Shown: positions 22,743-44,467 of the stretch, one piece after another
Layout of the letters: every line of letters begins with the position of its first letter
Numbering within the stretch: the stretch's first letter is position 1
Program-made: the position numbers and the translations under genes
From: a virus
Strand: one strand, 5' to 3'
IMG/VR virus record: IMGVR_UViG_3300043426_000009
DNA: 46,902 nt
The notes under the pieces: model-generated
Databases searched by the model: none
Seen by the model: the letters and a program-made list of their open reading frames with translations, nothing else
What the model was told of the DNA's origin: nothing

Positions 22743-22786
22743 CAAAGATACATTTAAAAATGTATTTACAAAACATTTTTTAATTT
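22743..22786 (-). promoter_or_regulatory. Bacteroidota-type promoter with an inverted repeat
   Basis: On the minus strand there is a TATCTTTG -7 box (22743-22750) and a TTTG -33 element (22769-22772) with an 18-nt spacer. The inverted repeat AAAAATGT-N9-ACATTTTT spans 22756-22780. An AAAACATTTTTTAATTT block lies upstream. Confidence 0.65.
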
Positions 22787-28204: not shown

Positions 28205-28385
28205 TTTAATGTTCATTCAATATAAATTCTTCCGAAATCATCCATTGACATTGGCTTTCCTTAAATCCGAATTCTTCATTATGCTCAATCAAAAATTCTT
28301 CGCCGCCGTCTTTATATTTTTTTTCATCGAAATCGAAAACGTGAACTTCCGATGTGCAAAAGTCTAATATTATTATTTTTTTCAT
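28205..28385 (-). pseudogene. Small ORF split by an A9/T9 homopolymer (59 aa if fused)
   Basis: The ORF from ATG 28385 (MKKIIILDFCTSEVHVFDFDEKK) stops at 28311-28313. A second frame from ATG 28327 (MKKKYKDGGEEFLIEHNEEFGFKESQCQWMISEEFILNEH) ends at 28205. Removing one T from the T9 run at 28316-28324 fuses the two. Confidence 0.45.
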
Positions 28386-29017
28386 TAGTTAAACCATTTT
28401 AAAATTGTTTCTTGATTATATCCTTTTTCCCAAATTATCCAACAATAACACGCCGCACTTCCTTTTTTTGTTGTTGTTACAAAATCGCCATTCAATGCAC
28501 ACATTATTCGTTTTGATGCGACATAAATTGTTTTTGGCGGAAATATTTTAAAAAATTCACGGCGTTCGGCGGTTTCTAAAAATTGAATTCTTAAAAACAT
28601 CGCAACTTTGTTTCCGGTAGGAATTATTGACATTGCTTTTTTTACAAATTCAATTGCATAAATAAACGGCGGATTTGTTACAATATCGCCATTCCATTGT
28701 GTTACATCAATTGAAAGAAAATCTTGAATTTCGCCATATCCACGATCCACATAATCGGATGATTTACCGTGAATGAAATTCTTTTTTAATACTTCAGACA
28801 AATGACCTTGACCGCAAGCGCATTCCCAAACATTTTGAAATGATTCTAATTTCAATAATTTTTCAAGTGCCATTGGGTCCGTTGCATAAAAATCATATTT
28901 TTCACGTTCTTGTTCCGAATGATTTGATGAACCAATTGTTGTAAACATTGTTTTACTGTTACCTTTCCAATCTTTTTTTCCAAACAATTCAAATTGTTCA
29001 TTGTTGTTTGTTTTCAT
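28385..29017 (-). CDS. SAM-dependent DNA methyltransferase, NPPF type (probable N6-adenine) (210 aa)
   Basis: The SAM-binding-like motif WECACGQGH is followed by the catalytic-type motif VTNPPF. Confidence 0.6.
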   Translation of the reverse strand: MKTNNNEQFELFGKKDWKGNSKTMFTTIGSSNHSEQEREKYDFYATDPMALEKLLKLESFQNVWECACGQGHLSEVLKKNFIHGKSSDYVDRGYGEIQDFLSIDVTQWNGDIVTNPPFIYAIEFVKKAMSIIPTGNKVAMFLRIQFLETAERREFFKIFPPKTIYVASKRIMCALNGDFVTTTKKGSAACYCWIIWEKGYNQETILKWFN

Positions 29018-29351
29018 TTTTTTTGTTTAAAGATTTATAAATTTCATCAAATATGAATCCAGTCAAATACGCTTGCGGTTCATCATTAAATCGGTCAAGT
29101 TCAATGCAATGATGTTGATAAATATAATTAACAACGTGAACGGTTTCGTGTGCTATTATTGATGGTTTTGCGTTTTCAAATGCGACAAAATATTTTTTAA
29201 TTCCTTTTTTATTTGACCGCACAAATGTTATTGCATCACAATCATCACAATTTTTCAAATCGTATTTCGCAGCGACTTTTGACATTTTTTTTGTTTTTAT
29301 CACAATCAATGTTCCGTGATAAATTGGCAATTTCATTTTTTCTATTTTCAT
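28998..29351 (-). CDS. Small HExxH protein, putative metallopeptidase-like (117 aa)
   Basis: ATG at 29351 forms an ATGA overlap with the upstream MTase gene. Contains the motif IIAHETVHVV and a downstream acidic NDEPQ. Confidence 0.4.
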   Translation of the reverse strand: MKIEKMKLPIYHGTLIVIKTKKMSKVAAKYDLKNCDDCDAITFVRSNKKGIKKYFVAFENAKPSIIAHETVHVVNYIYQHHCIELDRFNDEPQAYLTGFIFDEIYKSLNKKNENKQQ

Positions 29352-30415
29352 AATTTCGACAACCATTGATTAAAAATTTCCGTTGCAACTTGGGCCGTCA
29401 TTACGGGCGGGACCGACATTCCAATTAAATAAATTGGTTTGTTTCTTTTGAAATCATAATCAATCGGATATGAACCGATTCGACACAATTCATCTTTTGT
29501 CAATTTTCTTTTTTGTTCATAATGAAATAAATCGGAACCGGCCGCAATGGTATTGCAAACTTGATCCGGATGCAATTTGATTGAATTAAAACGATTTCCT
29601 TTTGGATGAACCGTTGCAATTGATTTTCCAGGTTCACACGTGTCGTAATAAATTAAATCGCACGGTGTGATTTTTTCAAATGGTTCAACGTTCGGGCCAT
29701 CTTCTACCATTTTATATGGAATTTTTGGTTCTTTAAAATTCAATAATAATTCCGGTGTTGTTGTGAACAAATCAACTTGCGTTAAAAATTGCGGTGCCAA
29801 ATCTTTTCTTAATGCGATGAAAAAAACACGTTTTCGGCGTTGTGGAACACCCATTTTTGAAGCGTTCAACAACCAATGTTGGCAATAATAACCGGCTTCA
29901 TCAAATGCTTTGTAAATTCTTCGCACATACGAACGTGCATTTCCCATCAACAAACCCGACACGTTTTCAGCCACAACGACTTTCGGTTGTAATTTTTCGG
30001 CCAAATCAATAAAATCAAAAAACAAATTATCAAGAATTTGTTTTGCTTGACCCTCACGAAATTTCTTTTCTTTGCCCCAATCTTTTTCACGTGAACCCGA
30101 CATTGAAAAACTTGAACACGGCGGCGAACCGTCCAAAATATCCAAGTTAAATAAATCTTCCGGCAAATCATCACGCAATTTGAACGTTTGAATTGGTTCC
30201 AAAAAAGCATATTTTGGTTTATGATTTGCAACATACGATTCAATCATTTTAGGATCAATTTCATTACATCCTAAAACATCAAATCCGGCTAATTTATAAC
30301 CAAATGAACTCCCTCCACCACAAGCAAAACAACTGAATATTTTCCCTTTGTCTTTTGTAAAATTGGCATTTTCTAATGACCAATTAAAATCGAATCTATG
30401 TTTTTCTATTTCCAC
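29348..30415 (-). CDS. DNA (cytosine-5) methyltransferase (355 aa)
   Basis: C5-MTase motifs are present in order: FACGGGSSFG (I), GSPPCSSFS (IV), VVAENVSGL (VI) and VPQRRKRVFF (VIII). The start at 30415 is GTG. Confidence 0.85.
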   Translation of the reverse strand: MEIEKHRFDFNWSLENANFTKDKGKIFSCFACGGGSSFGYKLAGFDVLGCNEIDPKMIESYVANHKPKYAFLEPIQTFKLRDDLPEDLFNLDILDGSPPCSSFSMSGSREKDWGKEKKFREGQAKQILDNLFFDFIDLAEKLQPKVVVAENVSGLLMGNARSYVRRIYKAFDEAGYYCQHWLLNASKMGVPQRRKRVFFIALRKDLAPQFLTQVDLFTTTPELLLNFKEPKIPYKMVEDGPNVEPFEKITPCDLIYYDTCEPGKSIATVHPKGNRFNSIKLHPDQVCNTIAAGSDLFHYEQKRKLTKDELCRIGSYPIDYDFKRNKPIYLIGMSVPPVMTAQVATEIFNQWLSKL

Positions 30416-31777: not shown

Positions 31778-31803
31778 AAAACGGTCAATGTTTTGACCGT
31801 TTT
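31778..31803. terminator. Intrinsic terminator
   Basis: AAAACGGTCAA-tgtt-TTGACCGTTTT. Confidence 0.75.
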
Positions 31804-35296: not shown

Positions 35297-35986
35297 TCAA
35301 AACAACGACGTTTGAGATTGTTCATTTGTAATTCTTTTGGTTAAAACTGAATAATATTTTTTATCAATTTCGCTTCCTAAAAAATTTCTTTTTTCTTTTA
35401 TACAAGCAATTGCAGTTGTACCACTTCCCATAAATGGGTCAAAAATCAAATCGTTTTCTTTACTTGAATTTACAACCAAAGTGCGAATAATGTTTAATGG
35501 CTTAACAGTTGGGTGTTCAAAATCGCTTTTTGAATTGTTTTGCAAAAAATATTTCTTCTTACTTGCGTAATCGCCACCTAAATAAGCTCCTTTACCTCTC
35601 ATAAAAATTATGTATTCAGTATCGCTTAAATATTTATTATTGGTTGTAGGTATTGGATTTAGCTTGTGGTAGCAAAGTATATCTGTATTCATATTATTTT
35701 CTTTTCCCCAAAGAAGTATTTGTAAAACTTGGTCTTTTGAGCAAAAAAAGTAACAATTAAATATTTTCAAAACTCTTTTACATTCGTCTAAAACAATATT
35801 TTCAAAACCATCACTTAATGATTTAACGCCTTTGTGATAATCTCGTTGTTCAGTCCCAAAACAACCGCCACCGCCACCACTAACAATTTCATACGGTGGA
35901 TCTGCAATTACTAAATCAACAGAATTGTCGGGCAATCTTTTTAAGGTGTTTAAACAATCCTCATTGTATATTTTATTTAATTCCAT
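35297..35986 (-). CDS. DNA methyltransferase, DPPY type (N6-adenine or N4-cytosine, beta-class order) (229 aa)
   Basis: Motif IV VIADPPYEI lies near the N-terminus and motif I DPFMGSGTT near the C-terminus. Composition is atypical, and the gene has its own promoter copy and a long leader. Confidence 0.8.
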   Translation of the reverse strand: MELNKIYNEDCLNTLKRLPDNSVDLVIADPPYEIVSGGGGGCFGTEQRDYHKGVKSLSDGFENIVLDECKRVLKIFNCYFFCSKDQVLQILLWGKENNMNTDILCYHKLNPIPTTNNKYLSDTEYIIFMRGKGAYLGGDYASKKKYFLQNNSKSDFEHPTVKPLNIIRTLVVNSSKENDLIFDPFMGSGTTAIACIKEKRNFLGSEIDKKYYSVLTKRITNEQSQTSLF

Positions 35987-36168: not shown

Positions 36169-36213
36169 CAAATGTAAATAAAAAAATGTATTATAAAAAC
36201 ATTTTTTAATTTA
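36168..36213 (-). promoter_or_regulatory. Promoter/operator cassette, copy 3 of the exact 25-mer
   Basis: GCAAATGTAAATAAAAAAATGTATT at 36168-36192. TACATTTG -7 box (36169-36176). Inverted repeat AAAAATGT-N9-ACATTTTT at 36182-36206. The -33 position reads TTTT. Confidence 0.65.
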
Positions 36214-38615: not shown

Positions 38616-38903
38616 TCAAAAATCAATATAGTTAAACAATTCATCTTTTGTGAAATTGAATTTTGCATTTTCACCGTTATTTCTGAATAAAAATATTTCG
38701 TGAATTTCAAAATTTGCAATTACAATTTTGTGATTTTCGATTTTCATATTAACACATAATTCAACTGTTAAATGATAAACGTTTTCGTTATCTTCTTTGA
38801 AATAAGAATTCAAATTTACGAACTGAGTTTGATTGTTTTCAAAACTCACTTTATCTGGTAGGAATTCCAGATTTTCAAGAATTTTTGATTTTGTATTTTC
38901 CAC
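38616..38903 (-). CDS. Orphan AT-rich ORF behind a duplicated promoter (95 aa from GTG)
   Basis: The track start at 38996 lies upstream of and inside the promoter copy. A conserved ATCGTG gives a GTG at 38903, about 15 nt after the predicted transcription start. The ORF is CG-depleted relative to its neighbours. Confidence 0.45.
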   Translation of the reverse strand: MENTKSKILENLEFLPDKVSFENNQTQFVNLNSYFKEDNENVYHLTVELCVNMKIENHKIVIANFEIHEIFLFRNNGENAKFNFTKDELFNYIDF

Positions 38904-38950
38904 GATAAAAAGTTTTTGTTTTGGCAAATGTAAATAAAAAAATGTATTTA
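38901..38950 (-). promoter_or_regulatory. Promoter/operator cassette, copy 2 of the exact 25-mer (upstream half truncated)
   Basis: GCAAATGTAAATAAAAAAATGTATT at 38924-38948. TACATTTG -7 box (38925-38932). The downstream leader is near-identical to the 43.2 kb copy. The upstream half is replaced by the 3' end of the RusA-like gene. Confidence 0.55.
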
Positions 38951-41303: not shown

Positions 41304-42074
41304 TTATTTATTTATAAGTTCAATCGCTAATTTAACACGATTTTCAAGAAACATTTTGTCTTCAACCGGAACTTCAAAACGAATGACATTGATGTTTTGA
41401 ATTCCAGATTCTTTATAAATATATGGCAACTCATCTTCTTTTGCACGACCAACTAACCAAAACGGTTCCGCAAGTTGACTGTTATACAATTTGATTTGTT
41501 CCAATTCTTCATAATATGGCATAAACACAATCAATTCGGCATAACGTGCTTTTAATATTGATGCGTTACTCACTAATTGCCAATAGTATTTTTCGCCCTC
41601 TTTTGATTGTTTTCGGATTGATTGTATTATTTCATTTCCGTTGATTGTTTTCTTCTTAGAAACGTTCAAACCGTCAAAATCATACAAATCTTTAACCAAG
41701 TTGTAAAATGCTTTTCGTGTCAATGGACATTTTATGTCCGTGATTGTATCAACTTTTTTGTCAACTTCAATTTTTCCGTCCGGCGTTCCAACCCATTCCG
41801 GAAATTTCGGGTGTTCAAATGTTACATCGGATTGAAATTGATATTTAAAACCCAATGAATCGTGAACAATTTTTTCGCAAAGTTTGCCCCACGAAAACGC
41901 CATTACTTCAACACTGTTTTCAAGTCGTTGTTTAAAAAATCTTTCCATTCTGCATTCTTCAACGTATGTGAAAAATGGTGCGCCTGGTTCGCCTTTGCTT
42001 CTTCCGTTTGATGTCAATGCGACAATATCGCTTGATGTGCATCTTCCAATTCTAATGTTTGATAAATTTCCCAC
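41304..42074 (-). CDS. YqaJ/lambda-Exo-like PD-(D/E)xK recombination exonuclease (256 aa)
   Basis: Motifs GTPDG, ITDIKCP and YYWQLVSNA. The start at 42074 is GTG. Confidence 0.7.
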   Translation of the reverse strand: MGNLSNIRIGRCTSSDIVALTSNGRSKGEPGAPFFTYVEECRMERFFKQRLENSVEVMAFSWGKLCEKIVHDSLGFKYQFQSDVTFEHPKFPEWVGTPDGKIEVDKKVDTITDIKCPLTRKAFYNLVKDLYDFDGLNVSKKKTINGNEIIQSIRKQSKEGEKYYWQLVSNASILKARYAELIVFMPYYEELEQIKLYNSQLAEPFWLVGRAKEDELPYIYKESGIQNINVIRFEVPVEDKMFLENRVKLAIELINK

Positions 42075-42087
42075 GAGTTTAATGTTT

Positions 42088-42663
42088 TTATAAGTTTCTT
42101 AAAAATTTTAATGTTTTATCATACGATGTGATTTCTTTGTTTTCGATGATTCTTTTGATGTGTTCAAAATCATCGGCCGGAATCAATGTTTCTTTTTCCG
42201 AAAACAATTTGTCAAGTTCTTTTTCTTTGGCTTCATCATCTTGAATGATTAACGGTTTCACACTCCAAATATCCGATTTAAAAGCATTAGTTGAATTCTT
42301 TTGTTTTCCCAAATATTCAATTCTTAACGGTGTGCCGGCAACTATTTTTCCGGAATTCATAGCACTTTGTAATGATGCAACTAATCGTTTTGAACCATTT
42401 CGGAATGTTTTCAATTCGCCGGTTTCTTTTTGTTCTAAAAATATGATGCACGGAAGTTCGATTGTTTCGCCAGTTTGTTCATCGGTATAACTTGAACTTT
42501 TAATGTCTTGGAAGAAACACAATTTTGTTTCGCCCTCTTTTTCCGGCGTCCAATATTCGCTGGTTAAATCAATTGGCAAAATCTTTGCACCTTGCAAATT
42601 CGGCAATTCTTCAAGTAAATCATAAGATTGAATTTCCGATGATGTTTTTTTTACATTTTCCAT
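42088..42663 (-). CDS. Hypothetical protein adjacent to the exonuclease, candidate recombination partner (191 aa)
   Basis: ATG at 42663. It occupies the position normally held by a single-strand annealing protein. No SSAP family motif was recognised. Confidence 0.35.
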   Translation of the reverse strand: MENVKKTSSEIQSYDLLEELPNLQGAKILPIDLTSEYWTPEKEGETKLCFFQDIKSSSYTDEQTGETIELPCIIFLEQKETGELKTFRNGSKRLVASLQSAMNSGKIVAGTPLRIEYLGKQKNSTNAFKSDIWSVKPLIIQDDEAKEKELDKLFSEKETLIPADDFEHIKRIIENKEITSYDKTLKFLRNL

Positions 42664-42687
42664 TTTAATAATTTTTTAAGATTGTTT

Positions 42688-42774
42688 TTATAATTCCGTG
42701 GCCAAAATATAAAACGGCCAACACGATCCACACGATGCAAAAAATATCAAATTTTGAATATTTTTTTGATTCAT
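42688..42774 (-). CDS. Possible 28-aa hydrophobic peptide coupled to the HTH gene
   Basis: ATG at 42774 forms a TAATG junction with the HTH stop codon. Translates as MNQKNIQNLIFFASCGSCWPFYILATEL. It is below the ORF track threshold. Confidence 0.25.
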   Translation of the reverse strand: MNQKNIQNLIFFASCGSCWPFYILATEL

Positions 42775-43028
42775 TATTTTTCATTTGAAACAAATTCGTT
42801 CAATTTACAATTTCCGATTTCCATCAACATTTGAAGTCTTTGAACAACATTTGGAACTTTGCCGCTTTTCCAATCCGTGAACAATTGCGGCGTAACGCCC
42901 AATTTTTCCGCAAGCAATTTTCTTGACATTTGCGGATGAACCGTTGGATTTGCTTTGTTCCATTTTTCAATGATAACATCAACATCAATAATTGTTTTCA
43001 CTTCTTTTTTTTCTTTAATTTTCGACAT
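42774..43028 (-). CDS. XRE-family helix-turn-helix transcriptional regulator (84 aa)
   Basis: HTH motif MSRKLLAEKLGVTPQLFTDWKSGK. ATG at 43028; the track start at 43073 is TTG. Confidence 0.75.
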   Translation of the reverse strand: MSKIKEKKEVKTIIDVDVIIEKWNKANPTVHPQMSRKLLAEKLGVTPQLFTDWKSGKVPNVVQRLQMLMEIGNCKLNEFVSNEK

Positions 43029-43050
43029 AATTTTTGATTTTAAATAATTA

Positions 43051-43212
43051 TTAATTGTTTTTACTATAGTCAATTTCTAAACTTGACAATGGTTTGTCAA
43101 AATTTGGGTCTTTGCGATCCACAAATTTTGTTTCTTTTTTCATTGATGAAATTTCAACTATTTTTGGAAATCCATCGGCTCTTGGCGGGTTTAATTCTGC
43201 AATTGTTTTCAC
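43051..43212 (-). CDS. Unannotated small ORF, first gene after the early promoter (53 aa from GTG)
   Basis: The GTG at 43212 lies in a conserved ATCGTG shared with the 38.9 kb cassette. Translates as MKTIAELNPPRADGFPKIVEISSMKKETKFVDRKDPNFDKPLSSLEIDYSKNN with TAA at 43051-43053. Confidence 0.35.
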   Translation of the reverse strand: MKTIAELNPPRADGFPKIVEISSMKKETKFVDRKDPNFDKPLSSLEIDYSKNN

Positions 43213-43275
43213 GATAAAATGTTTTTTGTTTCTGCAAATGTAAATAAAAAAATGTATTACGCAAACATTTTTTTA
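43210..43275 (-). promoter_or_regulatory. Early promoter/operator cassette, copy 1 of the exact 25-mer
   Basis: GCAAATGTAAATAAAAAAATGTATT at 43234-43258. TACATTTG -7 box (43235-43242) and TTTG -33 element (43262-43265) with a 19-nt spacer. A perfect 10-bp inverted repeat AAAAAAATGT-N9-ACATTTTTTT spans 43246-43274. Confidence 0.7.
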
Positions 43276-43288
43276 TTTTTTTAATCAC

Positions 43289-43317
43289 AAAAAAAAACGC
43301 CATTCTTTCAAATGACG
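43289..43317 (-). terminator. Intrinsic terminator closing the late/lysis transcription unit
   Basis: Minus-strand RNA reads CGUCAUU-ugaaag-AAUGGCG, with one G:U pair that exists only on the minus strand, followed by U9. Confidence 0.75.
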
Positions 43318-43365
43318 GTTAAAAAACTTTTTTATAGACTCGTGAAAATCTTTTGCAAATATAAA

Positions 43366-43935
43366 TTATTTATTTAAAAACGGAATTTTTGTCCGTGTGA
43401 TGTGTAAATAAATTGATAATGCAAGTAAAATTGACAATATAATTATGATGATCCACAAATTGAAAATTGATGTTGTTTTTTCTTTTATTGTGTTTTTATA
43501 ATTTTTTTCAATTTCATTTTTTTCATTCTGCAGCAACTCAAAATCTTTGTATAATGCAATGAAACTTTTTTCTTTTTCTTCGATTGTTTTATTCAATTCG
43601 TTTTCGGTTGTGTGAATCATCACTTCGCCGTTTCCGTTGATTTCGATTTCATTTTGAATTTGACCATTTTTTTTGGTGTTCATTTTGAATGGTTCAAATT
43701 TTCTTGTTATCGAATCGAATTTTGGTTTGTAAACAACAACGGTTTCTTTTTTGGTTGATGATTCATTTTCAGTTGATTTTTTTTCATTATCAACTTTCAA
43801 TTCTTCTTTTTGTTTGACATCAACATTCAATTCTTTGTTTTCGGTCGTTTTTTCATCGGTTTGTGATGTTTTTTTCTTTGAAGCGCATCCAATTATCAAA
43901 ATTGAAATAATCGCCGTTAAAATAAGTTTTTTCAT
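43366..43935 (-). CDS. Unimolecular-spanin-like protein: lipoprotein signal plus C-terminal TM anchor (189 aa)
   Basis: ATG at 43935 gives MKKLILTAIISILIIGC with lipobox IIGC. The C-terminal helix is IFNLWIIIIILSILLALSIYLHI. It is the last gene of the lysis cassette. The track start at 43974 is GTG. Confidence 0.55.
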   Translation of the reverse strand: MKKLILTAIISILIIGCASKKKTSQTDEKTTENKELNVDVKQKEELKVDNEKKSTENESSTKKETVVVYKPKFDSITRKFEPFKMNTKKNGQIQNEIEINGNGEVMIHTTENELNKTIEEKEKSFIALYKDFELLQNEKNEIEKNYKNTIKEKTTSIFNLWIIIIILSILLALSIYLHITRTKIPFLNK

Positions 43936-43939
43936 TTTT

Positions 43940-44467
43940 TTAATTTTCATTAGTTGATATAAATCCGGAATCACTCACATTTATAACACGGATGTTTTCC
44001 GGTTGTGATATTTTCCATTTTGTTCTTGATATTGAATTGCATCGTTTTTTTTCAATTCGTGTGATGCAAACCATATTTGATTGATTTCCGCCCAATACGT
44101 GATAACACGTTTTGTCTTCGCCAACATAAATTCCAACGTGGCCGCCGCCGTTTCTTTTGAATGTTAAAACATCGCCAAGCATTGCGACTTTTTGTTTGGT
44201 TCCAAATTTTGACCAATTCAACGCCCACAATGATTCTTTTGCGGTCAAACCAGTTTCAATATTTGCTTTTTTACATACATACGCAATGAACAATCCGCAC
44301 CAAGCGATTTCATCATTTGTGTATATTTTTTCAATTCCAAGTTCTTTGGCCCATTTCATAATGGTTTCGGAATTTTTAACGCCCACAATTTCTTTTGTGC
44401 CAATTAAATTTCTGGCTTGAATCAATATTTGCGGCGATGGTTCTTTTTTTAAATAGTCGTAATTCAT
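43940..44467 (-). CDS. Endolysin, NlpC/P60-CHAP-like peptidase (TIGR02594-like) (175 aa)
   Basis: The catalytic Cys context is EIAWCGLFIAYV and the His context is GGGHVGIYVGED. It lies between the holin and spanin-like genes. Confidence 0.7.
   Translation of the reverse strand: MNYDYLKKEPSPQILIQARNLIGTKEIVGVKNSETIMKWAKELGIEKIYTNDEIAWCGLFIAYVCKKANIETGLTAKESLWALNWSKFGTKQKVAMLGDVLTFKRNGGGHVGIYVGEDKTCYHVLGGNQSNMVCITRIEKKRCNSISRTKWKISQPENIRVINVSDSGFISTNEN

Follow-up and report, generated by a model that had tools for sequence, protein, structure and literature searches.

What does a small helix-turn-helix (HTH) gene do when it lies behind a tiny open reading frame (ORF) and a promoter bearing an inverted repeat, at the boundary between the lysis and the replication genes of a phage? 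We address this question for positions 42,688 to 43,275 of IMG/VR virus record IMGVR_UViG_3300043426_000009, a stretch of 46,902 nucleotides (nt) that was analysed as a whole and is called the window here. An earlier note had described the locus as having acr-aca-like architecture, with the small ORF as a candidate anti-CRISPR (Acr) or other anti-defence gene and the HTH protein as its repressor (Aca), and had given a simple Cro-like early regulator as the conservative alternative. The layout that it described is real (a dyad-bearing promoter, a small ORF, an HTH gene, and a coupled micropeptide), but the acr-aca interpretation is unsupported, and the conservative alternative proved to be the best fit. 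The locus probably forms the regulatory head of an operon for early recombination/replication functions in a virulent-type Flavobacterium siphovirus, with the HTH protein as a Cro-like temporal regulator. We prefer this reading because of the synteny of the gene block, the absence of a terminator after the HTH gene, the lack of any Aca match, the predicted disorder of the linked small protein, and the presence of the repeat at three promoters.

The window is the genome of a virulent-type (lytic) siphovirus that infects Flavobacterium psychrophilum and belongs to the FpV9/FPSV group. It is a circular assembly of ~46.8 kb (the first 127 nt are identical to the last 127 nt) with a GC content of ~32% and all long ORFs on the minus strand, and over 5 kb it is 98.6% identical to 29 F. 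psychrophilum phages of this group, each of which is 42.7 kb long. It is ~4 kb longer than these relatives, with 98-99% identity across the aligned parts. FpV9/FPSV phages are biocontrol agents against F. psychrophilum in aquaculture, and their annotation is nearly all 'hypothetical'. Among ~45 window proteins scanned, no integrase or CI-like gene was seen; the sole recognisable transcription factor is the 84-amino-acid (aa) HTH protein, and no further DNA-binding regulators were detected beside it. In the annotation of FPSV-D19, the locus consists only of this 84-aa gene ('XRE family transcriptional regulator'), with the 53-aa ORF ahead of it (here termed fam1) and the micropeptide gene after it left unannotated.

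The genome map places the promoter ahead of fam1, P43 (Table 1), at the boundary between lysis and replication genes. The fam1 stop codon at 43051 and the HTH start codon at 43028 share a strand, neither a promoter nor a terminator intervenes, and no minus-strand terminator was found anywhere between 43298 and 39774, including after the HTH gene. The transcription unit instead continues into genes for a 191-aa protein, a YqaJ-like exonuclease, a replication initiator (Phg_2220_C), a DnaC-like loader, and RusA, and the tightly packed genes that follow include ones of 256, 265, and 346 aa. This arrangement is conserved at the lysis/early boundary of more than 12 related phages: endolysin and lipoprotein genes, the terminator, the promoter, one or more small ORFs, the HTH gene, another small ORF, and genes for a recombinase, an exonuclease, and a replication protein succeed one another in Flavobacterium phage tant8-1, in 14 IMG/VR loci, and in the loci L033, L056, and L058. 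The recombinase within the block varies (RecT, a 245-aa family, a 368-aa ATPase, or a 191-aa family), and the window's own 191-aa protein occupies the slot that RecT/ERF/Sak4-like recombinases fill in relatives. The small ORF upstream of the HTH gene also varies, in that fam1 is replaced by the unrelated fam2 or fam3 in some lineages and L015-17 carry none. As a side observation, the position that follows the HTH and micropeptide genes (42088-42663 in the window; also examined in L005, L007, L008, and L033) holds non-homologous proteins depending on the phage, namely a 191/200-aa family (phrog_14584), the 245-aa family, a 368-aa P-loop ATPase, RecT, or ERF. This pattern suggests swapping of recombinase modules; the 191-aa family member of the window may be a single-strand annealing protein (SSAP) that has escaped recognition.

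The 84-aa XRE HTH gene named in the earlier note is real, as judged from a family search and an AlphaFold2 model. Word-indexed protein searches with fam1 and the HTH protein alone returned only their own clusters, and relatives were recovered by an exhaustive HMMER search, a fam1 profile, and tblastn; the locus search for relatives used an 8-sequence HTH alignment. The exhaustive search yielded 85 cluster representatives of the HTH family, mostly of 75-95 aa and aligned over their full length. HTH_26 was matched by 14/43 family members and HTH_3 by 8/43, with the window HTH itself a sub-threshold match to HTH_26 (Pfam). The AlphaFold2 model is confident (mean predicted local distance difference test score, pLDDT, of 91.8) and has four helices, with the HTH at residues 36-54 (helix 36-43, turn, helix 47-54). 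Its nearest neighbours by sequence and structure are XRE repressors (for example 434, P22 C2, SinR, HipB, and C-proteins), although Foldseek returned template modelling (TM) scores of only 0.3-0.45 with no match at E ≤ 0.001, so that the assignment is one of fold class only. No Aca protein among solved structures came close in sequence and fold searches of the PDB, which returned generic XRE proteins only. The window thus encodes a small single-domain protein of the XRE/Cro-C1 class from a gene at the start of an early operon that runs into replication genes, which is what a Cro-like regulator would be. A divergent CI gene with a shared tripartite operator was not found, all genes being on one strand, and the HTH protein is accordingly predicted to be the Cro of a virulent phage, unlike the lambdoid switch.

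The signals ahead of fam1 could largely be confirmed. The terminator of the late genes is real, and its stem is retained or lengthened in FPSV-D19 and shows compensatory pairs across nine loci. Downstream of it, the promoter elements described in the earlier note are present and of Bacteroidetes type. That this is the best promoter in the window could not be upheld, because the minus strand holds six matches to the Bacteroidetes consensus TTTG-N17-21-TAnnTTTG, P43 included, and two further copies with a weaker -33 element, P36 and P38. A 25-nt class-A core, AATACATTTTTTTATTTACATTTGC (43258-43234 at P43), occurs in three exact copies (P43, P38, and P36) with 0 expected by chance, and an upstream element, AAATTAAAAAATGTTTTG, has no mismatches at P22, P23, and P31, one at P36, and three at P43. 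The inverted repeat had been given as a perfect 10-bp repeat at 43246-43274; it exists, but its arms are actually 14 bp long and perfect (43278-43242). With up to three mismatches allowed, the 10-bp repeat has exactly three matches in the window (43246, 36180, and 22754) against a chance expectation of 0.63, and 4/100 shuffles reached three or more. The copies that had been named near 36182-36206 and 22756-22780 are therefore the sole other matches. Generic enumeration of dyads was swamped by trivial pairings of T-runs with A-runs.

These features place the start of a polycistronic transcript at P43, one of three near-identical class-A copies of a host sigma-A-type promoter, beyond the point where the late/lysis operon terminates; the transcript carries fam1, the 84-aa HTH, a 39-aa micropeptide, the recombinase, the exonuclease, and the replication genes in that order. 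For the HTH protein, the following role is proposed. As a dimer, it would bind the AAATGT/ACATTT dyads that P43 and P36 carry over their -33 elements and spacers, as well as the dyads at P22, and would thereby lower early transcription, its own included, as infection advances. That the inverted repeat is an operator is plausible, as is an action of the HTH protein on its own promoter, both as read from the arrangement of the DNA.

Several findings weigh against this proposal, and most of them concern the repeat. Its left arm belongs to the -33/upstream promoter (UP) element and its right arm to the class-A spacer. Of the two arms, P38 carries just the right one, and P31 and P23 carry just the left one. 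Since the arms occur separately at promoters that lack the partner arm, the case for selection of the repeat as a dyad is weakened, and it may be a by-product of promoter sub-elements and A/T runs. The early promoters of L005, L007, L033, and L056 have no dyad despite orthologous fam1 and HTH genes, and the recognition helices of these HTH orthologues are near-identical. P22 heads late genes, where simple repression would be odd; the HTH protein has three non-synonymous changes in its C-terminal part relative to close relatives; and, having no divergent CI partner, it is no classical Cro. We therefore regard it as a serious possibility, if somewhat short of an even one, that the repeat is incidental, an A-rich UP/-33 element next to a T-rich spacer in a duplicated promoter module, with temporal control exerted elsewhere, for example by RNA. 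The separate arms and the dyad-less relatives favour this, as do the A/T runs that make up 10/14 arm positions and a conserved small-RNA (sRNA)-like element complementary to early leaders (described below). Against it stands the pattern in other phages. The promoter module recurs three times in L044 and twice in L049, where the arms AAAAATGT / ACATTTTT are conserved, the centre is variable, and an ATACAT-N6-ATGTAT dyad lies around the -7 box. Conserved arms around a variable centre are an operator-like signature, and this signature extends over eight promoter copies in three phages. In addition, the core ATGT-N9-ACAT is specific and is not accounted for by A/T runs. Regulation of the early operon by the HTH protein remains the reading that we prefer.

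We then turn to fam1, on which the anti-defence interpretation had rested. The 53-aa ORF with a GTG start is present and coding: relative to FPSV-D19 it has four synonymous changes, all at third positions, and no non-synonymous ones, and a check for conservation found homologues in relatives that are 45-60% identical, with both motifs (Table 1) kept in 17 homologous clusters. In the alignment, the GTG start coincides with the N-termini of these homologues; an ATG first occurs in frame at codon 24, and a start there would delete the conserved N-terminal motif. Further support for the GTG comes from P38, which has a matching leader/GTG layout, and from tant8-1, which has ATG at the equivalent position. 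A tblastn match to fam1 in FL-1 (34% identity, E = 0.1) was not significant, and L025 was a GC-rich false positive. Searches of Pfam, PHROGs, and PDB gave no match for fam1. Structure prediction was run on both proteins: the 84-aa protein gave a confident HTH, and the 53-aa protein gave a model that is essentially coil and non-globular (pLDDT 70.5, predicted TM score 0.27). Apart from a wrongly chosen micropeptide frame and the understated length of the repeat, the earlier observation was largely right. fam1 is a new, conserved partner gene of the HTH, and its product is predicted to be disordered. In ~10 divergent contexts, fam1, or a protein keeping only its C-terminal motif, is never more than a few genes away from a member of this HTH family, and the linkage survives a reversed gene order (L026, L028, and L031) and an intervening helicase (L030). 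The motif DPNFDKPLSxL is near-invariant while the HTH diverges to barely detectable similarity, from which we infer a conserved host partner. Most likely, fam1 is an early peptide that would bind a conserved host factor via DPNFDKPLSxL, and less likely a partner of the fast-diverging HTH; the near-invariance of the motif argues against either the HTH or a variable defence protein as its partner.

Two other functions for fam1 were weighed against this. In an acr-aca-type operon, fam1 would inhibit CRISPR-Cas (type II-C Cas9) or another defence and the HTH would be an Aca autorepressor acting on the repeat. The layout agrees with this, as the HTH gene shares an operon with a small candidate gene that lies directly ahead of it, behind a promoter with an inverted repeat, and so does the fact that fam2 and fam3 precede the same HTH family in other lineages. 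On the host side, the II-C Cas9 of F. psychrophilum strain CN46 is functional against phage protospacers (PMC10309648), and host CRISPR is possible in principle as the target of fam1. However, no CRISPR spacers matching FpV9 were found in the genomes of 11 F. psychrophilum strains (PMC4829187). AcaFinder looks for self-contained units in which all genes are under 200 aa (PMC9765179); the operon studied here runs on into long replication genes without a terminator, and therefore is not a compact, self-contained operon of short genes. No homology to a known Acr or Aca family was found in Pfam, PHROGs, or PDB (dedicated Acr/Aca HMM libraries were not searched). Acr genes are usually patchy in distribution and fast-evolving, and fam1 appears to show the opposite pattern, being conserved jointly with the HTH across divergent phages. 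Together with the predicted non-globular nature of fam1 and the spread of the repeat over P43, P36, and P22, this makes an acr-aca function improbable; the anti-CRISPR label for the locus is unsupported, and ordinary early-gene control is the better reading. Alternatively, fam1 could be an accessory of the recombination module, for example a Gam/Abc-like inhibitor of a host nuclease or a recruiter of a host replication/repair protein, with the HTH merely a neighbouring regulator. In every context examined, the gene for fam1 or for a protein with the DPNFDKPLS motif is found 0-3 genes ahead of one for an SSAP or recombinase (RecT, ERF, AAA_24/Sak4-like, the 245-aa family, or the 191-aa family), and that a disordered peptide keeps a short linear motif near-invariant points to a conserved binding partner. 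On the other hand, fam1 has no similarity to Gam, Abc, or known factors in the three databases named above, and its association with the HTH is equally tight, so that linkage alone cannot separate the two ideas; we consider this role unlikely, though less so than that of an Acr.

The micropeptide after the HTH gene had been read as a 28-aa ORF (42688-42774, minus strand) joined to the HTH stop codon by a TAATG overlap. This ORF exists mechanically, but the conserved gene is a 39-aa frame that overlaps the HTH gene by 11 nt. The single internal substitution relative to FPSV-D19 is synonymous in the 39-aa frame and changes C to Y in the 28-aa frame, which was rejected as the wrong frame. Homologues of the 39-aa peptide follow the HTH gene in L005/L058 (61% identity) and L007 (39%) and share a YFGxG motif. 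The frame ends 1 nt ahead of the next ATG. It has an alternative TTG start at 42793, and since its ATG is ATA in FPSV-D19, the TTG three codons upstream may be the start there.

Between the lipoprotein stop codon and the terminator, a further element was found that resembles an sRNA gene. It was noted in the window and in L007, L009, L011, L012, L014, L015, L018, L049, L056, and tant8-1 (at the end of L004). Among ten loci that were examined for the promoter, a -7 box is present in 10/10 and a canonical -33 element in 0/10. In 9/10 the -7 box is followed by a 5' hairpin with varying, covarying stem sequences and the loop CCAC (UCAC in the window, where the hairpin-loop sequence is UUUUCACGA). 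A U-rich linker, often UUUGUUUGUUUG, separates this hairpin from the terminator, whose pairs covary. The unit has the layout of an sRNA gene (promoter box, stem-loop, single-stranded seed, and terminator) at a conserved position. No matching family was found in Rfam. The hairpins are single-sequence folds; RNAalifold on the alignment recovered only the terminator, with hairpin 1 out of register. A gapped DNA pattern scan of viral contigs gave 25 loci, of which about half were coding-region false positives without terminators.

Loop and linker are complementary to the leader and the start-codon region of the first early gene. The window's loop TTTTCACGA (43348-43340) matches TCGTGAAAA (43214-43206), where fam1 starts, as its reverse complement. 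Complementarity of 11 nt is present in L012 (TTTTTCCACGA / TCGTGGAAAAA) and of 12 nt in tant8-1 (AAATGTTTGTTT / AAACAAACATTT). Over 12 loci, the mean duplex energy was -15.7 kcal/mol. The two controls gave -9.9 (dinucleotide shuffles; Wilcoxon p = 0.003) and -9.6 (reversed leaders; p = 0.0005), with loci that lack phylogenetic independence, and no signal was found in L005 and L007. A genome-wide pairing scan of 9372 target segments ranked first the start of the first ORF behind P22 (22653-22712, minus strand; start AUGAAAAAAUUUUUUAGAACGCUCGUGGAAAAG) at -21.7 kcal/mol, with the P38 leader at rank 101 and the P43 leader at rank 295. The motif TCGTGGAAAA is not enriched genome-wide, and its positions alone are suggestive. 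GTG starts were also seen to recur in the context TCGTG(G)AAA (V-E-N/K-T...), at 42067-42076, 38896-38905, and 43206-43214 on the minus strand of the window and in L009, L010, L012, and L014; they belong to promoter-proximal genes and the exonuclease gene in several phages. This context may be a preferred initiation context in hosts without Shine-Dalgarno sequences, or a shared target of the hairpin loop.

From these observations we tentatively sketch a two-layer timing switch at the late/early boundary, of a kind undescribed for Bacteroidetes phages; we hold it to be rather doubtful as a whole. In its RNA layer, a -7-only promoter where the lysis genes end would give rise to an 'anti-leader' sRNA of ~65 nt (43355-43289). 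The CCAC/UCAC loop of this RNA, together with its U-rich linker, would base-pair with GUG/AUG start regions and with leaders that the phage's own early operons have in common. Among its targets would be the start of fam1 behind P43, the leader of P38, and the first ORF behind P22, and pairing would shut off translation. In its protein layer, the HTH would act on ACAT dyads, and fam1 would serve as a disordered peptide with a short linear motif by which a conserved host factor is captured.

Table 1. Positions of the features discussed, in window coordinates. Matches of the 14-bp arms of the inverted repeat at P36 and P22 were compared by eye.
Feature	Position	Strand	Description
Small RNA-like unit	43289-43363	-	-7 box TATATTTG at 43363-43356; 5' hairpin at 43351-43336 with loop UCAC; A/U-rich linker; terminator
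Intrinsic terminator	43289-43317	-	Stem 43317-43298 and T9 tail to 43289; ends the late/lysis operon and the small RNA-like unit
Inverted repeat, candidate operator	43242-43278	-	AAATAAAAAAATGT-N9-ACATTTTTTTATTT, 14/14 complementary; spans the -33 element and spacer of P43
Early promoter P43	43235-43265	-	-33 TTTG at 43265-43262, 19-nt spacer, -7 box TACATTTG at 43242-43235
fam1, 53 aa, GTG start	43051-43212	-	Motifs LNPPRxDGFPK and KDPNFDKPLSxL; predicted disordered
XRE/Cro-C1-type HTH, 84 aa	42774-43028	-	~80-aa family with the pattern IDVDxVIxxYNxxNP...DWKxGxxP...EIGxC..DF
Micropeptide, 39 aa, single-pass transmembrane	42665-42784	-	MKNNESKKYSKFDIFCIVWIVLAVLYFGHGIIKTILKNY; overlaps the end of the HTH gene by 11 nt (ATGAAAAATAA)
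Operon continuation	41304-42663	-	191-aa protein (phrog_14584) and YqaJ-like exonuclease
P38, class-A paralogue	38924-38948	-	Leader and GTG-start arrangement as at P43 (…TTTTATCGTGGAAAA); without the left repeat arm
P36, class A	36176-36212	-	13/14 inverted repeat; upstream of DNA methyltransferase
P22, class B	22750-22786	-	12/14 inverted repeat and ATACAT-N6-ATGTAT dyad; heads the head/structural genes

The surroundings of the locus and of the other promoters yielded additional observations. Upstream of the locus, an NlpC/P60 endolysin gene (43940-44467) is followed by one for a 202-aa lipoprotein (43366-43974, minus strand), whose N-terminus bears the lipobox LIIGCASKKK and whose membrane anchor is a transmembrane helix at the C-terminus. 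The protein looks like a unimolecular spanin, and its position is kept in all related loci. The leader behind P36 (36089-36168, minus strand) is unlike those of P43 and P38 and contains a G+C-rich hairpin, CCCGCTTTGCGAAGGCGGG, which is followed by a 33-aa ORF (36088-35987) abutting the DNA methyltransferase gene (35986-35297); hairpin and ORF may provide leader/attenuator control of the methyltransferase. In the early/middle region, at least three DNA methyltransferase genes and an HNH endonuclease gene lie at 28385-30415 and 35297-35986 on the minus strand, and these are the recognisable anti-restriction functions of the phage. A strong bidirectional terminator with an 11-bp stem (31778-31803, both strands), directly upstream of P31, divides the early region from the region of the DnaQ-like exonuclease, methyltransferase, and terminase genes.

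The analysis defines the transcription units of this genome by six to eight host-type promoters of two classes, adds two unannotated genes (fam1 and the membrane micropeptide) to the maps of FpV9/FPSV phages, places their only recognisable regulator, and removes a tempting but unsupported anti-CRISPR label. The interest of the locus lies mainly in the linkage of fam1 to the HTH and in the candidate anti-leader RNA. Translation initiation in Bacteroidetes does not use Shine-Dalgarno pairing, so that leader accessibility becomes the key variable; if true, the sRNA-like anti-leader would be a rare case of RNA-based temporal control in a Bacteroidetes phage.

Compared with known systems, the locus shares with Aca1/Aca2-type acr-aca operons a promoter with an inverted repeat, one or more small ORFs, and a small HTH gene, as well as the swapping of small ORFs in some lineages. 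It differs in that it is a fixed core early block and not a stand-alone short operon, in that its HTH matched no Aca in the databases searched, and in that its small ORF is conserved with the HTH and predicted to encode a disordered protein. The C proteins of restriction-modification systems (C.BclI and C.Esp1396I) are likewise small XRE HTH proteins with dyad boxes over a promoter; the dyad-bearing P36 drives a DNA methyltransferase, and weak Foldseek matches to them were obtained. In contrast to these systems, no endonuclease gene is adjacent here, the TM score is low at ~0.33, and 7 kb separate the genes for the HTH and the methyltransferase. As for the candidate sRNA, P1 c4 RNA works by a bipartite antisense logic to which the unit described here is similar. 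Like P1/P7 c4 and P22 sar, it would be a phage RNA that is short, structured, and encoded ahead of the target, with a loop and a single-stranded stretch complementary to the leader/start of a downstream regulatory operon. Unlike them, the candidate is known from sequence alone, would be transcribed separately, starting from a -7 box of its own and ending at the late terminator, and would target the shared leaders of several early operons. The closest parallel to the HTH gene is offered by 434 Cro and P22 Cro, which are also small, single-domain HTH proteins of the all-alpha XRE fold, encoded at the head of an early operon that leads into replication genes and with a dyad-symmetric site over the promoter. 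The window differs from these in having no divergent CI, integrase, or shared OR region and in having its genes on one strand. Its HTH protein has an extra N-terminal helix (IDVDxVIxxYN), with a conserved small protein encoded ahead of it, and its candidate sites are at three dispersed promoters, one of them late.

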